A stretch of DNA of 62,639 nucleotides, counting the filler, from Aduncisulcus paluster (lineage: Eukaryota), in NCBI GenBank assembly GCA_024181965.1. It is 5 parts of 5 records of this genome, joined end to end, with 100 filler letters (N's around TTAATTAATTAA, not from the genome) between each part and the next. Parts side by side here need not be neighbours in the genome. Positions count along the whole stretch, not along the records: positions 8,736 to 25,212 come from BQXS01010893.1; 4 more parts are not named here. The stretch is one strand, 5' to 3'. Numbering within the stretch: position 1 is the stretch's first letter; every line of letters begins with the position of its first letter. Below the pieces are notes generated by a model, which saw nothing but the letters and a program-made list of their open reading frames with translations, ran no database searches and had not been told where the DNA came from. This document shows positions 946-58,533 of this stretch, in pieces. The position numbers were made by a program, and so were the translations under genes.

Positions 946-1477
946 TAATGTTGTTTTAATGTTTTTTTTTAAATTAATTTATGTCTTTCTTTCTGCTATT
1001 ACTAATAGCAGAATTAGTAATTGCTATTTTCTCTGAATCCAATTTCTTAAGTTCCTTGGATATTTTTGTCAGAATTATATGTTTTTTCTTGGATAAGCGA
1101 TAGATTTAATTGTAATTCATGTTTTTTTCCCTTTACACGATTCTCCTCTCAAACTCCTCCATCTTAATAGTTTATTTATTAATGTTGGATATTTTCCCTA
1201 TTTCATTAAATTTTCAGTATTCTACACCCATTTGTGTTTGTAATACCTTATAAGAGAACAATAAAGAATTTCTTCTCTCGATAGCTGATCGGAGTTTTCA
1301 TACAAAAGATGGTAAATTTTTCATTTAATGCCCCTATTATATCTATTTACAACACTTTGAGTTCAATTTATGTTTGGAAATATTCATATTATTTGCAATT
1401 AATGAGTTAGGAATCAGAGAGAAAAAAAAACCAGTTTTGAAAACCATTAAAAACTCAAACTCAATCTTTTTTTATAA

Positions 1478-8635: not shown

Positions 8636-8735
8636 NNNNNNNNNNNNNNNNNNNNNNNNNNNNNNNNNNNNNNNNNNNNTTAATTAATTAANNNNNNNNN
8701 NNNNNNNNNNNNNNNNNNNNNNNNNNNNNNNNNNN
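8636..8735. other. Artificial contig spacer N44-TTAATTAATTAA-N44
   Basis: Identical 100-nt spacer with stops in all six frames occurs four times; flanking genes are cut at it. Confidence 0.97.
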
Positions 8736-12473: not shown

Positions 12474-12485
12474 TTGTTGTCAAAA

Positions 12486-14291
12486 ATGAATTGTATTTAT
12501 AAAGAGTCTTTTGGTTACAGCCGTCAAATAATGAATGGTGCAAGGGATAAAATATATCCTGAAAAATCTTCTAGTGATGAAAAAAGATCAGGTTCCTCTC
12601 TAGGAGGCCGAGATTCTGATGATAGCTTAAAAAGTTATTGTCCTGCTGCCCAACATGATATAAAAAGGTTAAGACAGGAATTAAAAGAAAAAGAATTGAT
12701 GTTAAAATATTGGAAAAATACTATTGAAGAGAAAAACCATGAACTAGCCCAGTTGCGAGAATCTGTCACTCGGCTCGAATTAATTCAGAGAGATACCGCA
12801 GATGTCCTTCAATTGGAGAAAGAAAAGCAACAGGAAGGTGTAAATATGAGAATTGTTCTTCTTGAAAAGCTTGTAGATCGCTTAAAGGCTCGATTGATAG
12901 ATTATGAAGAACAAGATATCACCCTTGAGTCACAGGAAAAACAGATAAAAGAACTTGAACAGCGTTTAAAAGAATGTAAAATAGAAAAAGAAACAACCGT
13001 TCAAATGTGTCGAAAAGAAATTGCAGAAACTCGATCTTTTTTGACGCGAGAATTTAATGAAAAGATACGATCAATGGAAAAAGAGCAAGAAGAAGCATTA
13101 ATTGCACGCCTTCCAGGCTTTTCAAAGCGTATGGTGAAAGATAACGCCGAACTTCGACTTGCAATGGTAAAGCAACAATATGAAATTGATCTGGCGATTA
13201 AAAAGACGAAACAAACAGAGGAAGAAGCTGCAAGGCTTCGTATTGATACATCCAATGACGATGATTTAATTAAACGGCAAGCCACTGAACTTACAACGAC
13301 TCGTAAGAGATGTGTTGAGCTCCAAAGAAAAATTCTCACCCTTGAAGCTGAATTTAAACGTAAAGAAACTGATGCTATCGCATATTATCAATTACAACGG
13401 ACATATGCCGTCTTGGAAGATAAGCTCAAGAGAATTGAGTCTGAACGTGATGAGTTCAAGCGATTATATATTGATTATCAGCATAAATTCTCACAACAAC
13501 AACAAAAATATAATTTATTAAATAAGTCTAAACAGCTTCTTGAGAAGAAACATCGGATTTTGTCTTCTCAACAGGGTGATTCGTCGGGCACACCAATCTC
13601 ATCTGGATCTATTTTTGGAATGAGTGGTTCATCGGCCCCCGTCAGAGTTAAAAAGACCGGCATGGCATCCGTGTACAGTTCCAAACGACCCATCCCTCAT
13701 ACCACCCTTGGAGTTCCAACACAATTACGTGACATCACAATGCAAATTCTAGCCGAACGTCGTATGCATGGCGATGAGGGAGAAGATATGGATGACAGGG
13801 GCTTCTCTGGTCATCGTCCTCGTGATATCATCACCACTGCATCCTCCGTGCTTGGTTCTGGTGGAGTGGGTTCAACACAATCCCATCAAGAATGGGACAG
13901 ACAATTTGCAGAGGATAAGATGATGCTATTCGGAAGCACGGTTCAGGGGGGACGTGGGATATCGTCTAAATATAGCTCAGTGTCGGGGAAAACAGGTTCA
14001 TCGACTCCGATGATGCCACAAGCCCAGGGTATGTTTCCAATGAGCGCTGGAAATCCCAAGACAGCACTTCTCAAGAGTAGAGAGAAGACTGGAGAACGCC
14101 GGAAAACTGGATCCATCTTAGTTGGAATGAAGCCCAGGGCCCTATCTTATTTGGAACAAGGTGAAAATGGTCCTGATCAAGGAATTGAGGGAGGAAGGTC
14201 TGGAATGGGTCAACGAGCCCTGAGTGCAAAAATAAGGAAGAATTCAGAAAAGGGAAAGAGAAAACGTAGCAAAATGATGGTGCTTCCATAA
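12486..14291 (+). CDS. Coiled-coil ciliary/basal body protein, BBOF1/CFAP157 (DUF4515)-like, with low-complexity tail
   Basis: Long coiled coil; LTREFNEKI..RMVKDNAELR..QQYEID..DDLIKRQ resembles DUF4515. First ATG at 12486, alternative at 12531. Confidence 0.6.
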   Translation: MNCIYKESFGYSRQIMNGARDKIYPEKSSSDEKRSGSSLGGRDSDDSLKSYCPAAQHDIKRLRQELKEKELMLKYWKNTIEEKNHELAQLRESVTRLELIQRDTADVLQLEKEKQQEGVNMRIVLLEKLVDRLKARLIDYEEQDITLESQEKQIKELEQRLKECKIEKETTVQMCRKEIAETRSFLTREFNEKIRSMEKEQEEALIARLPGFSKRMVKDNAELRLAMVKQQYEIDLAIKKTKQTEEEAARLRIDTSNDDDLIKRQATELTTTRKRCVELQRKILTLEAEFKRKETDAIAYYQLQRTYAVLEDKLKRIESERDEFKRLYIDYQHKFSQQQQKYNLLNKSKQLLEKKHRILSSQQGDSSGTPISSGSIFGMSGSSAPVRVKKTGMASVYSSKRPIPHTTLGVPTQLRDITMQILAERRMHGDEGEDMDDRGFSGHRPRDIITTASSVLGSGGVGSTQSHQEWDRQFAEDKMMLFGSTVQGGRGISSKYSSVSGKTGSSTPMMPQAQGMFPMSAGNPKTALLKSREKTGERRKTGSILVGMKPRALSYLEQGENGPDQGIEGGRSGMGQRALSAKIRKNSEKGKRKRSKMMVLP

Positions 14292-14486
14292 CCAAATTCT
14301 TCCTGAGTTATGCTATTGTTTCCTCAGGGTCACTCATTATTTTTTTTCTTGTGTTCCTCTTCATCCATGTGTTCATTCCATGTTATATTATCAAATAATT
14401 ATTCGCATAAATAATATGAATTGATGATATATTATTGTTCATTGATTTCAAGCATTTATTATTTCTTATTCGCTCATCAAAGTTCG

Positions 14487-14754
14487 GGCATCATGCCTGC
14501 CCCTTATGAATCAGAGCTGTTTCCCTGTCACTTGTTGTTGTTTAATTCAATATTTTTTTCCATTATTTTCATTGTATTTTGTCGGGAATGGCGATGGTTA
14601 TTGCTCTACAGACTGTAGACATCATGTCTTGTTATGATAACAACTTGTCTGAGACAAGTTCAAGGCTTGAACTTGGGAAGTAAACTTTTTTCAAAAAATT
14701 CATTATTTCTTACCAAAGAAGAAATCTCAAAGGCATCATGCCTGCCCCTTATGA
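14487..14754 (+). repeat. 23-bp direct repeat GGCATCATGCCTGCCCCTTATGA (14487-14509 and 14732-14754)
   Basis: Exact match seen; it begins with the palindrome GGCAT-C-ATGCC and brackets the palindrome chain. Confidence 0.9.
14605..14675. repeat. Chain of five overlapping perfect palindromes with 1-nt centres
   Basis: TCTACAG-A-CTGTAGA, AGACAT-C-ATGTCT, TTGTTAT-G-ATAACAA, AACTTGTCT-G-AGACAAGTT, CAAGTTCAAG-G-CTTGAACTTG. Confidence 0.95.
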
Positions 14755-14876
14755 TGAGGGTCATGAAGCATTCACCACGTAGATTTTTTCTTTTTGAGGC
14801 ATATTCACACGGCAGGAGAAGATAATCATACGAATTATAAAATTAATTTATTTGTTAATCTAAAAAAATATTTTAA

Positions 14877-16373
14877 ATGACTTCTCCCTTCTCATTTTCT
14901 ATTCTTCAAACCACTCTCAAAAAATACCCGTATGAAAACCCTTCAGAAATAATTTCGCAATGCCAACATGCTGTTAAAAAACATAAAAACAGTTTTCGCG
15001 GAATTATGTTGAGATCTCTTCGCCGTCCCCCAGTTTCTGCCACAGATCCTCCTAAGGATATTGTTATTGCTATTCAGGGATTTATCACGACTAATTATGA
15101 TGGTAAAGATAGCCATTATCCTGTTGTTATATTTTTTGATTATGATTTCCCAAACAGTCCTCCTCTCATATACTCAGTTGATGGTGGGGGGCTCCAGAAC
15201 TCCCCTTCAACTTTTCATGATTCTACTGGTTACATCCATACACCTTTATTGTCTAAATGGCGAATTAACCGGACTAAAGCACCTGAATTAACTCTATTAT
15301 CCGTTATTGATGAGATTTGTCACCATTTTTCATCGACACCTCTGCTGGTTAAACAACAATCGATATCAGATCATGATCGCAAGATGGCGTTAGAGTATGA
15401 TGCAAAAAGGCCTTTACTGGATCAAGTTGGTGAAACTTTCAAACCATTTTATGTCTCCGCCAAACAATTCGCTCAAGTGGAAGACGATGATGATTACGAT
15501 CCAATTTATTCTGATTATGGGCCATCTGATAAAATCTATTCCGATTATTGTCCTGAATCTGAAGGACATGGAGAAACAAAACCTAAGAAAAATGAAATTG
15601 AAACCCTTCCTTCTCTTTCCTCTTCATCAACGTCTATTCCTTCCCCAAAGCCATCGGAACTTCATGTTTTACGGTTTATTCTTGCCCAGAAACTTTCGAA
15701 AGATATTTCAAGACTTTCTGAGTGTGTTGGACGAGCTAAAGAGCAATGTCTTCGTCGTCAGCTTGAGCTCTATGATTACACTGGAACATCTCCCCTCGAT
15801 TGTTCTTCTCTTCGTCCTTATCACGATTATTTGAAGAAGAAGCATGAATCTCTTCAGTCTGACATTATACAAAGCAAGACAAGAGAATCCATCAAGAAAG
15901 AACTTAAAGACAGCTTTCACAAGAGTTATTCTTCATTCGTGGACTCTTGTTGTGACGAATACAATGCCCTTCTTGATGACATGTGCGACGCCCTGCCTGA
16001 AGTTGTTCTGTCCGCCAAGTCTGCTTGTGCCATACGCGATGTGAGCATGCTTCCGTCATTTGATCAGGTTGTTAGTGTTCTTACAGTCTTACTCCCAGAG
16101 GATAAAGTGGAGGAAACGGTTGGGATGCCTGTTGTTACGGAACTTCAGAACATTATATTTCAATTTGATCGCGAGTCCAAAGAGAGGATGAGAATCCTGG
16201 TAGCCAGTATCTTGGAACTTGAGACACCCACGGGACTTGATCTCTTCCCCTTCATGCCTCCTCTGGACTCCTGGAAGGATGATATTCACATTCCTGGAGC
16301 TTCTTATGGAACTGTGCATACTGCTTCGTACAGAAAGGGAGATTCCAAGTTCATTATATATGATATGGAATGA
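14877..16373 (+). CDS. UEV-domain protein, TSG101/Vps23-like (ESCRT-I)
   Basis: QGFITTNYDG..YPVVIFFDYDFPNSPPLIY..HDSTGYIHTPLLSKW aligns with the TSG101 UEV (GTIPVPYRG..IPICLWLLDTYPYNPP..VDANGKIYLPYLHEW), followed by a Pro/Ser linker and a helical region. Confidence 0.7.
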   Translation: MTSPFSFSILQTTLKKYPYENPSEIISQCQHAVKKHKNSFRGIMLRSLRRPPVSATDPPKDIVIAIQGFITTNYDGKDSHYPVVIFFDYDFPNSPPLIYSVDGGGLQNSPSTFHDSTGYIHTPLLSKWRINRTKAPELTLLSVIDEICHHFSSTPLLVKQQSISDHDRKMALEYDAKRPLLDQVGETFKPFYVSAKQFAQVEDDDDYDPIYSDYGPSDKIYSDYCPESEGHGETKPKKNEIETLPSLSSSSTSIPSPKPSELHVLRFILAQKLSKDISRLSECVGRAKEQCLRRQLELYDYTGTSPLDCSSLRPYHDYLKKKHESLQSDIIQSKTRESIKKELKDSFHKSYSSFVDSCCDEYNALLDDMCDALPEVVLSAKSACAIRDVSMLPSFDQVVSVLTVLLPEDKVEETVGMPVVTELQNIIFQFDRESKERMRILVASILELETPTGLDLFPFMPPLDSWKDDIHIPGASYGTVHTASYRKGDSKFIIYDME

Positions 16374-16558: not shown

Positions 16559-16603
16559 TGTTCTGCCAGAACAACCGTTGTTCTGGAGTGACTCCAGTGG
16601 AGT
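16559..16603. repeat. Chain of four overlapping perfect palindromes with 1-nt centres
   Basis: TGTTCTG-C-CAGAACA, CCAGAACAAC-C-GTTGTTCTGG, CTGGAGT-G-ACTCCAG, ACTCCA-G-TGGAGT. Confidence 0.95.
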
Positions 16604-24440: not shown

Positions 24441-24727
24441 ATAAAGAATAATGTCTTACATTTATATGACGGTAAACCCTTCCTGAGGCTGAATCGCGTA
24501 TTTTTCTCATTGAGAAATTCTCAAGTTTCTGGTTTCATGACGCATGTGTGTTTTCATTCGGATATTATGATGTGACATGTAGTAGACAAATTTATTATCC
24601 CATTGGTGAGATGAGATATGATACTTGAGAACCTGAGGAGCTTCTGAGGAGAAAAAACTGGATTTTCTTTCGAATCATATCATTGAACAAATATCCAGTT
24701 CGTGGAAAACACAATTAATAGCGTCTA

Positions 24728-25212: not shown

Positions 25213-25312
25213 NNNNNNNNNNNNNNNNNNNNNNNNNNNNNNNNNNNNNNNNNNNNTTAATTAATTAANNNNNNNNNNNNNNNNNNNNNNNNNNNNNNNN
25301 NNNNNNNNNNNN
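25213..25312. other. Artificial contig spacer
   Basis: N44-TTAATTAATTAA-N44. Confidence 0.97.
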
Positions 25313-31478: not shown

Positions 31479-31578
31479 NNNNNNNNNNNNNNNNNNNNNN
31501 NNNNNNNNNNNNNNNNNNNNNNTTAATTAATTAANNNNNNNNNNNNNNNNNNNNNNNNNNNNNNNNNNNNNNNNNNNN
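31479..31578. other. Artificial contig spacer
   Basis: N44-TTAATTAATTAA-N44. Confidence 0.97.
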
Positions 31579-40973: not shown

Positions 40974-41073
40974 NNNNNNNNNNNNNNNNNNNNNNNNNNN
41001 NNNNNNNNNNNNNNNNNTTAATTAATTAANNNNNNNNNNNNNNNNNNNNNNNNNNNNNNNNNNNNNNNNNNNN
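40974..41073. other. Artificial contig spacer
   Basis: N44-TTAATTAATTAA-N44. Confidence 0.97.
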
Positions 41074-41692: not shown

Positions 41693-42094
41693 GGTCTATT
41701 TGATTGAAAATGAGAAAATGAATGAATGGGGATGAAATGGGGATAAAAAAATCACATCAATGGAATAATAAAGCAAATAATACATACTTTTACCAAAAAA
41801 ACTATATTTGACGTTGCCAAACCCTACAAAAATGAGTATTAATTGAATTGTTCCAACTTCGAGTGATAAATTGTTATATTTCTGTTGATAATCATTTTTA
41901 TTTCTTGTTAAAGAGAATGTTAAACATTTCTTTTGTAATCAGCCTGCAGGAGTCCAAGTTTTACTGAGTAAAATTTACTCATCAGAGAAATGTCATATTA
42001 TTATAATAATGATGAACATAACACATATCGGCATTGATGCTTCATTTAGCAAGAACCAATTTTCTCTGGTCTGGACCAAGATTTCACGAAGATT

Positions 42095-51217: not shown

Positions 51218-52017
51218 AGAATGCGGAAATTACTGGAAATAGGATTTTTTTTCGGTCATAATTATTGCATAGTACATGCATAAATATTTAAACGTTAAGA
51301 AAGGAGAATGGCATTCATATGGCATATGATATGACAAATATTGTTTTTGGGGTCTCTGACCTTGAATGATACAATAATAATAATATTTTTTTATATATTT
51401 TGAATGGTATAAATAGAGTTTTGAATGTTACATATGTTAACTTATTGTATATTGTTCATTTGATTCTCAACCGTTTTTAGAACTCTTTCTTCGATCATCG
51501 ATCAATATGATATTGATCCAGAAGTCGAATATCAAAATTTATTTGTTTTATGTTCTTTAGATAAACTAATTTATAGGTCAAGAATTGATTAATTGGGTTT
51601 AAATCTTTGAAGAGATCTTTTTTCATTTTTTTGTTGTTTTTTCCGGTATTCTATGGTATGATAATTCCATCTAGTTGCTTCATTTTATATTAATGATCTC
51701 CGATGTCTGAAATAAATTCAAAAATCTTTGTTTCTGATCTCCCAATGACACAAAAGCTAGTGGTGTCTTAAGTCCTGAATAGGTTCTAATCTTGAGGCAA
51801 TACAATGTTTTCTAAATTACAGTCCTGATATTAATTCAATAACAAAAAGGATTGACATTATATTAATTTGTATTTGACGAAAACTAGATCTAACGATTCT
51901 TTGAAAATATTCCTGTACTACATAACTAGTAGTTATTTATTTAATAATTGATCTCACCTTTCCAATTTGTACATGTTAACGAAAAAATTGAATAATAATA
52001 TTTTATTTTCCAAGTTG

Positions 52018-53530: not shown

Positions 53531-56500
53531 ATGACCGTTGAAGAATCAGATTTCTCGGTTACTGTTAGAATAAGACCTGAATTACCTAGTGAAGGTGATA
53601 GTGGTTGTTGGACAAATATCATTCGCAAAGTTGATGATCAAGTTCTCGTTTTTGATCCTTCTCCGACCATATCTCGGCGGAAACCAGTTGCCTCAAATCC
53701 TGGTGATAAAAAATTCAAAAACAAGGCGTTCAAATTTGATAAAGTATTTGGAGAGGATTCAACTCAAGAAGAGGTGTTCTTAAATACTGCCCAACCTCTT
53801 ATTGGTGCTGTTCTTGATGGATATAATGCCTCTGTCCTTGCTTATGGTGCCACTGGAAGTGGAAAGACATTCACCATGTTAGGTGCTCCTAGTGGTGGCA
53901 GTGGAATCGTATCACTATCTTTGGGTGAACTTTTCCGTCAAATAGAAGCTTGTAAAACTCATACTTTCTCTGTCTCTGTGTGTGCCATTGAGGTTCACAA
54001 TGAGATATTAATAGATTTACTGAACTCTGGAAATTCCAAAAGAAAGTTAGAAGCTATGGAAGATGAGGAGAACCCACGTGGAAATAAGCAACCTGCTCAT
54101 AAGAAATTCTCAAAAAAAGCATTCTCCCATCGTGGAGGATCTCATTCGCCATCCCAAGGTTTAGATATTCAAGAAGAATCCAATGGAAATGTTGTTGTGT
54201 CTCCTCTAATCTCCCATCGGGTCAGCAATGTTCGTCAGGCCATGCGTGCTTTGTCTGTTGCCGCTGCTGCTCGTACCACACATGCTACTGAAGTCAATGA
54301 ACGTAGTTCCAGATCTCATGCTGTATTCCAAATATATGTTGAGAAATTTGAGAAAATTGGTGGAGTAATTAGCACTTTGTGTGTTGGAAAGCTTAGTCTG
54401 GTTGATCTCGCTGGAAGTGAGCGTGTCAAGCGTACAAAGAGCTCTGGGCAGCGTTTGAGAGAAGGACAAAACATTAACAAAAGTCTGTTGGCCCTTAGTA
54501 ATGTTATCAATGCTCTCTGCAGTAACTCGAAACGTTCTTCGTCGCAACCCCAAGCTCATGTTCCTTACCGTGATAGCAAACTCACACGCCTCTTGAAGGA
54601 CTCGTTGGGAGGTAATACACGAACATGTATGATTAGCAATATTTCTCCTTCTTCATGCTGTTTCGAAGAGACCTTTAACACTTTAAAATATGCCAACCGC
54701 GCAAAAGAGATAAAAATAACAGTCAAACGGAATGTGATTGATGTTAAACATCATGTTTCGGAGTATAAGAAAATGGTTGAGGATCTAAAAAAAGAACTCA
54801 ATGAGATGAGAAAAGAGAAGGCAGCTGAATCTGATAAGTATACAAAACTCCTCCAAGAACTCCAATCATTGCGGAGAGGAGGTAGTGTTCCATCCACCTT
54901 TGATCATTCAAAGATATCCCATTCTAAAAACTTTGAAAGGGAGTTAGCTGAGCTCGGTATGCTGAAGACAAGCGAAGCTGCTATGTCTGACATTCTCCAC
55001 CAATTGAGACCATTGTATGATGAACATATGCAACTCTTGAAAAGGCTCCTTGTAATGAAGAGAGAGAATATGGAAAGCAACGAAGCTAAACGCGAATCGT
55101 CTGCTCCCACTTCTTCCTCCTCATCCACAACATCTTTATCTGGCGGTGGAGCCTCTGTGCTCCCTCCCAAGGTTCCTTCAAACAAGTCCGCAATGGCTGA
55201 TGGCACATCGATACGTTCTGTCACTTCAGCTCTCTCTGAGGTTGTTGACTCCATCAGTATGGTTGTTGGAGAGTCTTCTACGCTTATTCCTCATTCATTT
55301 CACCGATTTTTGTTGAATATTATCACACAAACACACTCAGTTAGAGTCCGTGCTGCTGAACGTGAAGAAGAAGTGATCTGGCTCAGAGGTCAGCTGAGAA
55401 GATCGAGGGAGAGAGAAGAGAAATTGAGGAGACGAGAGGCAGAAAGGATACAGACTCAGCTATCGAGCACCACCGCAAATTCTAAGATAGTGGAACACCA
55501 TCCTTCTGTCGTGTTTAATACTCCTGGACATGACGTAGCTTCTTCGGCTTCAAATGGACAGATTTCATACGGTAAATTCAATCCGTTCCATTCAGCTGCA
55601 ATTCGTACACCCGATATCCTTGGAGTTCTTGATAGAACTGAGAGACGTCGCAGAGGCGAGGATGTGAGTGGCGATCGTCGTGCCATGCGGCAGAAAGATC
55701 ACGAGGAAGAAGAATATATCCGTTCCAAGAGAAGAAGTGGTTTAATGGCTGGACATTCTGGAGAGATGGAGGAAATTGAGGAACGGTTGGAGAGGAAACG
55801 TGAGAAGAAGAAGAGGGATCTTGTGGATAGCGATAAAGATTCTCGGCCGTTAAGTGCCGACGGGTCCATATATCGTACAGCAATATCATATCATTCCCCT
55901 GATGACTCCCCGAAGGGAAGAGGCTCAAGGCGTGACCATAAGAAACCCTCGACAGCTCCTAGCAAACCTTCTGTGGGTCTTAACAGTGGAGGAGTTCTAG
56001 AAGCTAACTATGGAAAAGCTCCCGTTCGTTTGTATGGTCCTACTTCCCCTCAGTCTCGTTCTTCCAATACCAGTACCAACACTAGCGGTGCCGTTGAAGA
56101 TGCCATGATGAGTGTATTTAGTTCTGTTGTTGAGGAAGAGGACAATAGACGCCGTGCAGAAGAAACACGCAGGAAAGAACAGAAGTCTCGCGATGACAAG
56201 GTCAAGGCCCTTGAAGAGAAGAGGAAGATGCAACTGAAACAGCGTGAACTCAGTCGAGCTGATAGTTCCATGAGTGTCAATTCAGGGGACAAAACATCTC
56301 AGCATGCTCATATTCCCCTGAGTGGTCATGTTATGCCTCAAGGAGTTATTTCAAGCTCTGCTCCTAAATTAACCACCTCAAAGACCAAGATGGGATCATT
56401 CAAACGTCTGGTGTCTCCTCGTGGGATAACGGAGAGTAGGGAACAACTTTTGGCCAAAGCTGCTGCAAATGGAACAGCAGACAAACCATCATCCCTGGCG

Positions 56501-58533
56501 TCTCAAGGAAAACCTGTGATCACTGCCGATGGATCTATTTCACAACAGGCATATTCACATCTTGCCAAGCATCATGGACTCTTTTTGAGAAACAATGTTG
56601 TCAGACGTCGTAAGAAGAATAATGATGGTGCTGCTCCAACCATACAGAAATATGGGACTGCTGATGTCAAGAGAACTCAAGATAAGTCTTCTAAGCATCC
56701 AGGCTCACCCAGTAGTCTGATAATGAAAGGAAAAGGGCATACTTTGGGCAGTTCAATCCACAGCGGTGGTAAGCAACCTAAACACAGCAGTGCGAAGGAG
56801 GTTCTTTCATCCCTAAAATCTCACCATCATCCTGCTCCCATTTCTTTCACTCCTGATGCTCTCAAGAAGGCTAAGAGAAGGAAGGAGATTGAAAGTGAAT
56901 GGCGTGCAAAGAAAGAGCGTAGGGAACAAGAAATTAAGGAACCTATTGGTGGCAAAGGGGAAGAAACCAAAGGCAAAGACAAGCAAGGTAGTGAGCAGAA
57001 GAAAGTTCCAATTCTTCAGNNNNNNNNNNNNNNNNNNNNCCAACCATACAGAAATATGGGACTGCTGATGTCAAGAGAACTCAAGATAAGTCTTCTAAGC
57101 ATCCAGGCTCACCCAGTAGTCTGATAATGAAAGGAAAAGGGCATACTTTGGGCAGTTCAATCCACAGCGGTGGTAAGCAACCTAAACACAGCAGTGCGAA
57201 GGAGGTTCTTTCATCCCTAAAATCTCACCATCATCCTTCTCCCATTTCTTTCACTCCTGATGCTCTCAAGAAGGCTAAGAGAAGGAAGGAGATTGAAAGT
57301 GAATGGCGTGCAAAGAAAGAGCGTAGGGAACAAGAAATTAAGGAACATATTGGTGGCAAAGGGGAAGAAACCAAAGGCAAAGACAAGCAAGGTAGTGAGC
57401 AGAAGAAAGTTCCAATTCTTCAGTCAACCTCTGTTGATGGATCTTCCATTCTTGATGCTGTATTTGGCGATATCACTGCTGTTCACCCCCACCCTCCGTC
57501 AACTCCTCCTTCAGGGCGTACGTCTTCACTCTTATCTCTGCAATCATCACATTCCCAGAAGATGAGAAGGAGATTGGTCTCACCAGGATATAACATCTCT
57601 GGGGATTCCTCTGCTATGGTTGATATCACTTCGGGGGCTGCTACACCCACCGTTCCACACCCAGGCAACAGAAAAGCAGGTGTGGATGCTACTCCTAAAT
57701 CTCAGTCCGCCGTTAGTTCTGGACTTCCAGTCTCTCCATCTGATCGATCTGATAGAGTTCGTACGACACACATTGATGTTCAATCATACGATGAACGGGA
57801 CTCTGCCTCAAGAACTGGAAATACAGGCGTGTGCACAGTGTTCGAGACTCGTGAAGCTGCTGATATCAGTGGTGAGATTCCGTATGAAAGTGGAGTTGCC
57901 GGGATTGGCGCAGGATACGTGAGTGCAGCCATTGAATGCAGTGAAAGTGACGATGATATTGAGCTTAAAGTGTCTGAAGTGCACGATGGACATGGATCTG
58001 GACCAAAGAATAATCCTGACATCAATAGATATCGTGTCCAGAGCTATGTTGCAAGCTCTCAGCAGCAGCGGCAACATCCATCAACATCGACATCTTTGGT
58101 TGGTGGTGCCATTCTAACGGCATCCAAGCCTGTGTCTCAAGAAATAATTCCATCTCAACGCCACATCTCTGTCGATATTTCCTCTGAAGATATTGAGAGG
58201 GAACGAGGTGTCGGGGATGTATTCAGACAGCCATATAAACACCCACCTTCCGTGCGTCCTTTTACTGCAGCTGGGAATATATGGGGCATGAAGCCTCATC
58301 GTGGACCTGAAGAAATCGAACGTCCCCAGACTCAATTGGGAGTGAATCCAAAGTCAAAGGGTAGCCCTCAATTTGTTATGAAACCTTTTAGAAAGAAGAA
58401 GAGGAAAGAAAAGATCAAAATGATGGCACAAAAGAAGGATCAGGGAGGCAGACCCGTCTGGAGAATGCACTTGACTGGAAAATTACAAGAATTAGAAATG
58501 CTCGAGAAAATTGCGCATAAAGGGCGGAAATAA
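53531..58533 (+). CDS. Kinesin-8 family motor (KIF18/KIF19-like), one gene split by an assembly gap
   Basis: AYGATGSGKTFTM, SSRSHA, LSLVDLAGSER, EGQNINKSLLAL, HVPYRDSKLTRLLKDSLGGN, NTLKYANRAKEI..KRNV. Removing the duplicated overlap joins the two ORFs. Confidence 0.9.
56636..57423 (+). repeat. 384-bp duplication (56636-57019 = 57040-57423) around a 20-N gap; probable uncollapsed overlap
   Basis: Copies end exactly at the gap edges and differ at two positions (56834 G/57238 T; 56943 C/57347 A). Confidence 0.92.

Follow-up and report, generated by a model that had tools for sequence, protein, structure and literature searches.

The palindrome chain between two genes

An intergenic spacer of the Aduncisulcus paluster assembly GCA_024181965.1 holds five palindromes that interlock over 71 bp, and the question raised by this locus is what kind of process could have written them. 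The window, which is the whole stretch of 62,639 nucleotides analysed here, consists of five parts of the genome of this compact, intron-poor eukaryote. The chain lies between two genes on the same strand, as follows.

12474..14291, plus strand, upstream neighbour, an ORF of 605 aa without a Pfam match
14605..14675, no strand assigned, the chain, with centres at 14612 (A), 14623 (C), 14636 (G), 14651 (G) and 14665 (G) and arms of 7, 6, 7, 9 and 10 bp
14877..16373, plus strand, downstream neighbour, an ORF of 498 aa with a UEV domain

The five palindromes reported in the initial annotation were all found at these centres with these arms; each is exact and turns on a centre of 1 nt, and the centre-to-centre spacings along the chain are 11, 13, 15 and 14. 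The same annotation had inferred a process that repeatedly writes inverted copies, with selection for cruciform or dimeric-protein binding as the alternative. The chain is not a pure fold-back series, as each new centre is preceded by 3-7 bases that the previous palindrome did not supply.

The expectation that palindromes with a one-base spacer would be more frequent than in shuffled DNA was borne out, with 49 palindromes of this type (arms of at least 6) in the whole window compared with 24.5 ± 4.7 in block-wise dinucleotide shuffles. None of the other spacers from 0 to 8 was clearly enriched over the shuffles in the window at the same arm length. The intergenic spacer itself (14292-14876, 585 bp) contains seven one-base-centre palindromes with arms of at least 6, where 3000 shuffles averaged 0.29 and reached 4 at most.

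A 321-bp region that includes the chain is present in a single copy. Runs X1 and X2 each provide one contig across the whole chain, in which no letter differs and no gap occurs. Regarding the suspicion of an assembly artefact, this agreement speaks only against an error of this one assembly; the two runs come from one sample and were available as contigs only, and X1 is possibly the source of the assembly.

Two classes of double scar in the genome sample

Palindromes of this type were surveyed in 119 sequences with a combined length of up to 643 kb, which is about 2% of the 29.6-Mb assembly, after 16 overlapping loci had been dropped; the loci were picked for length or transposon hits and not at random. 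One-base-centre palindromes with arms of at least 7 numbered 91 in the first 270 kb compared with 33 in shuffled sequence. In 427 kb, 127 were located outside long ORFs (18.5 in shuffles) and 19 inside them (30 in shuffles). Pairs of such palindromes fell into two classes.

In class A, the centres stand 7 apart, and 24 pairs were found in 643 kb where 0.1 were expected. The centre bases vary, being the complements of the outer bases of the 8-bp word on the left in 22, on the right in 18 and on both sides in 16 of the 24 pairs. The sample also contains hAT elements with 8-bp duplications (L006/L094 and L009) and 12 matches to PF05699, and class A scars elsewhere in the genome show the features of a hAT footprint, including a single-copy empty allele. 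Class A is the 8-bp footprint of hAT elements and, as such, a plain new instance of known hairpin footprints.

In class B, the left centre is C and the right centre is G, mostly 12-14 apart, and 35 pairs were found in 643 kb compared with 0.8 after shuffling. A 2-bp duplication flanks 34 of the 35 pairs and a 3-bp duplication none of them (0/35); the earlier 427-kb set had given 2 bp in 27 of 27, one of which was a duplicate. In a relaxed class B set, 37 of 48 inserts consisted wholly of inverted flank copies, the usual overlap being 0-2 bases. Variants with a 2-bp duplication were rare, with one G..G, two C..C and two G..C pairs, some of them not clean, compared with 34 C..G pairs. Pairs with zero-, two- or three-base spacers formed no class in the sample, those with zero spacer being at the shuffled level, and single zero-spacer palindromes (arms of at least 7) were mildly enriched (47 compared with 28). 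Clustering of double scars was not significant at 40, 100 or 300 bp (within 40 bp, 4 compared with 1.05, p=0.09).

Class B scars also occur within retrotransposon and transposase sequences. Those at L120:1267 and at L123:2556 and 2717 lie inside Plavaka-like transposase loci themselves, and a TnpB/Fanzor-like ORF (L053:2-1468; Cas12f1-like_TNB, E 1e-11) carries a class B scar at 308. Scars account for a large share of the intergenic palindromes in this genome, and the whole assembly could hold a few thousand double scars when the counts in this non-random sample of 643 kb (about 35 of class B and 24 of class A) are extrapolated.

Several other repeats were noted in the sample. Irregular TATAG/TACAG arrays (L050, L075-L081 and G000-wide; 559 matches of an 18-base word) are joined directly to unrelated sequences at contig ends and resemble degenerate telomeric repeats; short copies also occur inside contigs, one of them within a class B-like scar (L014:4479). 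Their interpretation as subterminal repeats was rejected because the arrays stand at contig ends, and they probably inflate the count of pairs spaced 5 apart. A short repeat with tRNA-promoter-like boxes was seen at L123:61-249, L088:4671-4853 and L014:4826-4958. The short contig L022 (G000:C10500, 603 bp) carries a beta-lactamase-family fragment and is possibly bacterial contamination.

Comparison with empty paralogues

An informative paralogue was available for three scar sites among the sampled loci. Compared with L056, the retrotransposon copy at L072:7385 carries a class B insertion of 17 bp, placed at a single TA. At L109:1001, comparison with L130 revealed a one-sided, C-centred insertion of 9 bp ending in a duplicated dinucleotide, and comparison of L095:2150 with L003 confirmed the 8-bp class (class A). 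Both scar classes are therefore insertions relative to empty paralogues.

Reading of the chain

With the rules of the two classes at hand, the chain was divided into the following parts, none of which has an assigned strand.

14605..14619, palindrome 1, centre A 14612, arm 7
14617..14643, palindromes 2 and 3, class B double scar, centres C 14623 and G 14636, AT duplicated at 14621-14622 and 14637-14638
14642..14675, palindromes 4 and 5, double scar, CT duplicated at 14649-14650 and 14666-14667

Palindromes 2 and 3 are a canonical, textbook class B scar, in which the 12-base stretch separating the centres consists entirely of inverted copies from both flanks. The 13 bases between the centres of palindromes 4 and 5 are also wholly inverted flank, joined over 6 nt, which is more than the class B maximum of 4, and the left centre is G where class B has C, the sole G..G case found in the sample. 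Palindromes 4 and 5 fit a class B double scar if one tip is read as G. They would represent a second scar, 12 bp from that of palindromes 2 and 3 in the unscarred sequence, and either the left hairpin would have been opened on the other strand or the tip base would have changed. The interlocking of the arms could be explained if adjacent scars copy flank bases common to both.

The assignment of palindrome 1 is uncertain: it may be a one-sided scar, either a right-hand hAT scar with a 3-nt microhomology at the join or the left tip of a class B scar, reading A, and it possibly arose by chance. In an alternative, nested parsing, which is possible, palindromes 1 and 4 enclose palindromes 2 and 3, again with a 2-bp duplication, but 6 bases are left over. 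Two of the five tips (A 14612 and G 14651) violate the C..G rule and thus count against a class B reading of the chain.

Among the origins offered by the initial annotation, the opening of hairpins after transposon excision is supported by the discrete scars, the fixed C and G centres and the empty paralogues. The hAT label that came with it is not supported for the chain, since hAT double scars here have centres 7 apart with an 8-bp duplication and the core of the chain is C then G with a 2-bp duplication; a one-sided hAT scar is a possible reading for palindrome 1 only.

In summary, the chain is real, and it is neither an artefact nor a new element but most likely a stack of excision scars, which in itself is probably functionless. 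We consider it likely that the chain is no single element but consists of two or three footprints, next to or inside one another, left by cut-and-paste transposons, and that their source was of the CACTA/Plavaka type (CMCT clade).

Other scars in the window

Further scars were found in the window; a strand is given only where one was assigned.

14731..14760, slightly decayed class B scar in the chain's own spacer, C 14737 and G 14753, AT duplicated, one mismatch in the right palindrome
14487..14509, plus strand, copy of 14732-14754, an exact 23-bp direct repeat, 245 bp apart
16559..16603, second chain, nested class B, outer C 16566..G 16597 (TG duplicated) and inner C 16576..G 16590 (AC duplicated)
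991..1022, class B scar, C 1002..G 1017, TA duplicated
51491..51518, class B scar, C 51496..G 51509, AT duplicated
51914..51936, class B scar with a short left arm, C 51918..G 51929, TA duplicated
24503..24524, class A (hAT, 8-bp duplication) double scar, centres 24510 and 24517
41959..41981, class A (hAT, 8-bp duplication) double scar, centres 41966 and 41973

The copy at 14487-14509 does not fit its own flanks, whereas the right copy does; the left one is therefore a copied scar that was not formed in place. A second common word of 11 bp is located upstream of each copy. In the second chain (16559-16603), two class B scars are cleanly nested, and this chain and 14605..14675 are the only chains of three or more palindromes in the sample.

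A double scar at 54739-54758, with centres 6 apart, fits a 7-bp duplication and is a possible class A variant. The runs of N in the window (8636-8735, 25213-25312, 31479-31578, 40974-41073 and 57020-57039) mark joined contigs, with a short AT linker, and 20-N gaps across the assembly are bordered by exact duplications of 200-500 bp.

Candidate source element and its transposase

A family of element ends with the 13-base sequence CACTAGCGTTCCG or close variants gave 38 matches, compared with 2 for the reversed pattern, and shows subterminal repeats and 32 distinct flanks. Its termini are of the CA..TG type, 37 of the 38 ends starting with CAC and one with CCC, where the first C is fixed by the search pattern. 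The common sequence of the family stops at this terminal C, and the flanks outside are unrelated. Two insertions could be resolved on empty paralogues (L140 and L171 on L036 and L084; L154 and L163/164 on L014), and in 2 of 2 the overlap, and with it the duplication, measured 2 bp, the other ends not being pairable; this length lies within the range of 2-5 bp given for the CMCT clade.

None of the 38 ends shares a contig with another, and no CACTA-ended element was recovered with its two ends on the same contig. De novo inverted-repeat scans recovered hAT elements and no convincing C...G element with both ends, and pairing of the ends by type (5 and 33) gave no signal, most elements carrying the same type at both sides. 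On C9703, one CACTA end stands upstream of a Plavaka-like transposase, and the end on C10055 is directed away from the transposase there.

The transposase family was collected from a weak Plavaka match and comprises 53 matches with open frames of up to 927 aa; a repeat-rich end found near one copy turned out to belong to the CACTA-ended family. The alignment shows the motifs D, D, CxxC, DxLH, H(3)H and a late E, that is, a DDE transposase with the C(2)C and H(3-4)H of the CMCT clade. Its best cluster in the Atlas was Plavaka (0.96, with a recognition value below the usual level), and Plavaka was matched in Pfam by 2 of 10 members. The best folds for the structural model (pLDDT 65) were RAG1 and then Transib, as a weak match (E 3e-4, TM about 0.3). 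A PDB sequence search with the transposase profile returned 0 hits, the protein database search matched only the organism's own protein, and a search for PF02992 (plant EnSpm/CACTA TnpD) gave no match, with the control equally silent.

The matching C...G ends and the 2-bp duplication suggest that the CACTA-ended family is the source of class B. TA makes up 14 of 34 scar duplications and 3 of 32 element flanks (Fisher p=0.004); the CACTA-ended family alone therefore does not explain the duplication spectrum, and other families of the CMCT clade probably contribute to class B.

Other transposases in the sample were a MULE transposase of 809 aa with a SWIM finger (L082:268-2694) and a fragmented Tc1-type DDE_3 transposase (L052:1942-3165).

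Proposed mechanism of excision

In the mechanism proposed for class B, an element of the CMCT clade with C...G ends would insert and duplicate 2 bp, as was seen for two insertions. At excision, both flanks would be sealed as hairpins, to which the scars and the RAG1/Transib-like fold point, and the hairpin tip would carry the first base of the element, C. In the simplest geometry, the non-transferred strand would first be nicked one base within the element and the second cut would follow at the border, so that the transferred 3' end would stay whole. The host would open each hairpin about 5-7 bases past the tip, on the 3' side, and the two tails would be joined with an overlap of 0-2 bases. 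The resulting order would be flank, C, inverted flank, inverted flank, G, flank, and this pattern itself was seen in the scars.

Opening on the 3' side of the tip was deduced from class A, because the tip base there reads as the complement of the flank base. When the same opening is applied to class B, a left C and a right G imply that both tips hold C, and since these tip bases are absent from the empty paralogues, they would be derived from the element. Alternatively, a G tip could have been opened on the other side with the same read-out, but the element would then be shortened at each jump.

With a C tip in class B, three hairpin geometries can be distinguished: the hAT tip comes from the flank, RAG leaves no tip base and the class B tip would be the terminal C of the element. 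Hermes reportedly nicks one base into the flank. A search of the draft for Ku gave no match (the control matched in 1 of 14), and one for DRMBL/Artemis gave no match with a silent control, each being only a hint of absence. On balance, we are somewhat inclined to the wider proposal that the CACTA/Plavaka-type transposase uses this third geometry with the terminal C as the tip and that both long tails are kept in a protist without detectable Ku, so that the genome would be a readable archive of thousands of excisions whose superfamily can be assigned by geometry.

Alternative explanations

Class B, or its share of TA, could stem from another C...G-ended element with a 2-bp duplication, for example one of a TA-specific ESTA-like or Tc1-like family, and not from the CACTAG-ended family. 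This is unlikely in our judgement, even though TA is over-represented in the scars relative to the element flanks (p=0.004), a Tc1-type DDE_3 transposase is present (L052), plant CACTA footprints differ from class B and ESTA, which has TA duplications, belongs to the CMCT clade according to the available text of PMC12730594. Non-TA duplications flank 20 of the 34 scars, in classes also found at CACTAG ends, and the abundant CACTAG family would be left with no zero-spacer scar class of its own. Mariner-type elements, moreover, cut without a hairpin, as stated in the accessible part of PMC5499845.

The excision of CMCT-type elements also has to be weighed against origins that involve no transposon. 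Iterative fold-back or template-switch synthesis had been envisaged in the initial annotation, but it is very unlikely that a single episode of it (polymerase-theta-like, during the repair of a break) wrote the whole chain. Such synthesis would draw some support from the two chain tips off the C..G rule and from the lack of a Ku match in the draft, which would favour alternative end joining, but it predicts neither the fixed centres of C then G and the strict 2-bp duplication (34/35) nor the separate 7-spaced class and the limitation of pair enrichment to the 1-nt spacer; every step of the chain includes bases not copied from the previous one, and the comparison with empty paralogues shows discrete insertions. 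Selection for a structural or protein-binding signal (a cruciform or a dimeric factor, as had been offered as well, or a 3'-end signal) is more improbable still. The position of the chain between two same-strand genes and the concentration of such palindromes outside ORFs would suit a signal, yet selection against frameshifts would by itself keep them rare in ORFs, the arms have no common sequence beyond the centre rule, the same pattern interrupts retrotransposon and transposase sequences, and the scars are discrete insertions relative to empty paralogues. The probability of an amplification or assembly artefact appears negligible. Duplicated blocks of 200-500 bp do surround gaps in the draft, and both runs come from one sample and were compared as contigs; against this, the two separately assembled runs are identical letter for letter, and an artefact would not avoid ORFs, follow the C..G and 2-bp rule or show decayed copies.

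Comparison with known systems

Hairpin-flank footprints are already known for hAT, Mutator-like, Transib and RAG systems, and to these the present analysis adds a rule of two classes backed by counts, comparisons with paralogues and a CACTA-ended 2-bp family as the candidate source. Class B, with its element-derived tip and 2-bp duplication, is a variant of the hairpin footprint for which no description was found in the open-licence literature, a body of work without most older subscription papers; that literature also yielded no description of the cleavage positions of EnSpm/Plavaka-type transposases. The classical footprint work on En/Spm and Tam1 belongs to that older subscription literature. 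What class B predicts about the cleavage chemistry of transposases in a RAG1-related clade is sharp and testable, and the scars record hairpin opening and end joining in a protist without detectable Ku.

The CMCT clade comprises EnSpm/CACTA, Mirage, Chapaev, Transib, Plavaka and ESTA, with CA..TG ends and duplications of 2-5 bp, and the transposase motifs given for it in the available text match those of the Plavaka-like alignment (PMC12730594). The candidate family has CACTA ends like plant EnSpm, but its duplication is 2 bp and its protein is nearest to Plavaka. Plavaka ends are described there as TGT..ACA or CATCA..TGATG, whereas the family here reads CACTA and thus corresponds to neither PlavakaA nor PlavakaB in this respect. 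Plant EnSpm/CACTA elements are recognised by PF02992 and a 3-bp duplication, from which the 2-bp duplication departs, the PF02992 control being silent. Hairpins are not mentioned in the main text of PMC12730594.

Arabidopsis Pack-CACTA1a has CACTA ends, short inverted flank bases at the junction and closely spaced repeat insertions (PMC6379663). Its duplication is 3 bp, and its palindromic additions are 1-2 bases long, mostly without a C or G tip. Four of 18 clones were wild-type-like, three footprint types (7 clones) fit tipless hairpins, 1 clone fits a retained G and the rest were uninformative. Judging from the accessible part of that paper, plant CACTA does not obviously share the class B tip geometry. 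The available text of PMC8195511, PMC4219821, PMC4773125 and bioRxiv 10.64898/2026.08.24.746626 contained no usable CACTA footprint letters.

In hAT, Transib, RAG and Mutator-like systems, the non-transferred strand is cut first and the flank is sealed as a hairpin, according to the available text of PMC5499845 and PMC6900584. The proposal made here shares the flank hairpin with RAG1/Transib, and these are the nearest solved folds of the predicted transposase structure. RAG cuts at the signal-flank boundary, as described in those texts, and so produces palindromes without a centre base, whereas the class B tip would hold one element-derived base; the RAG/Transib-type footprint, with paired palindromes lacking a centre base, was not seen in the sample.

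Footprints of the hAT element Ac/Ds with palindromic P-nucleotides are described from plants, S. cerevisiae and C. albicans in the accessible text of PMC5873905. They resemble the scars here in their inverted flank copies around one base and their short-microhomology joins, and class A is this pattern with an 8-bp duplication. The Ac/Ds centre, as described there, is the complement of the element-adjacent flank base, whereas class B has C at every left centre and G at every right centre, with a 2-bp duplication, and in class B both long arms are usually kept, unlike in Ac/Ds.
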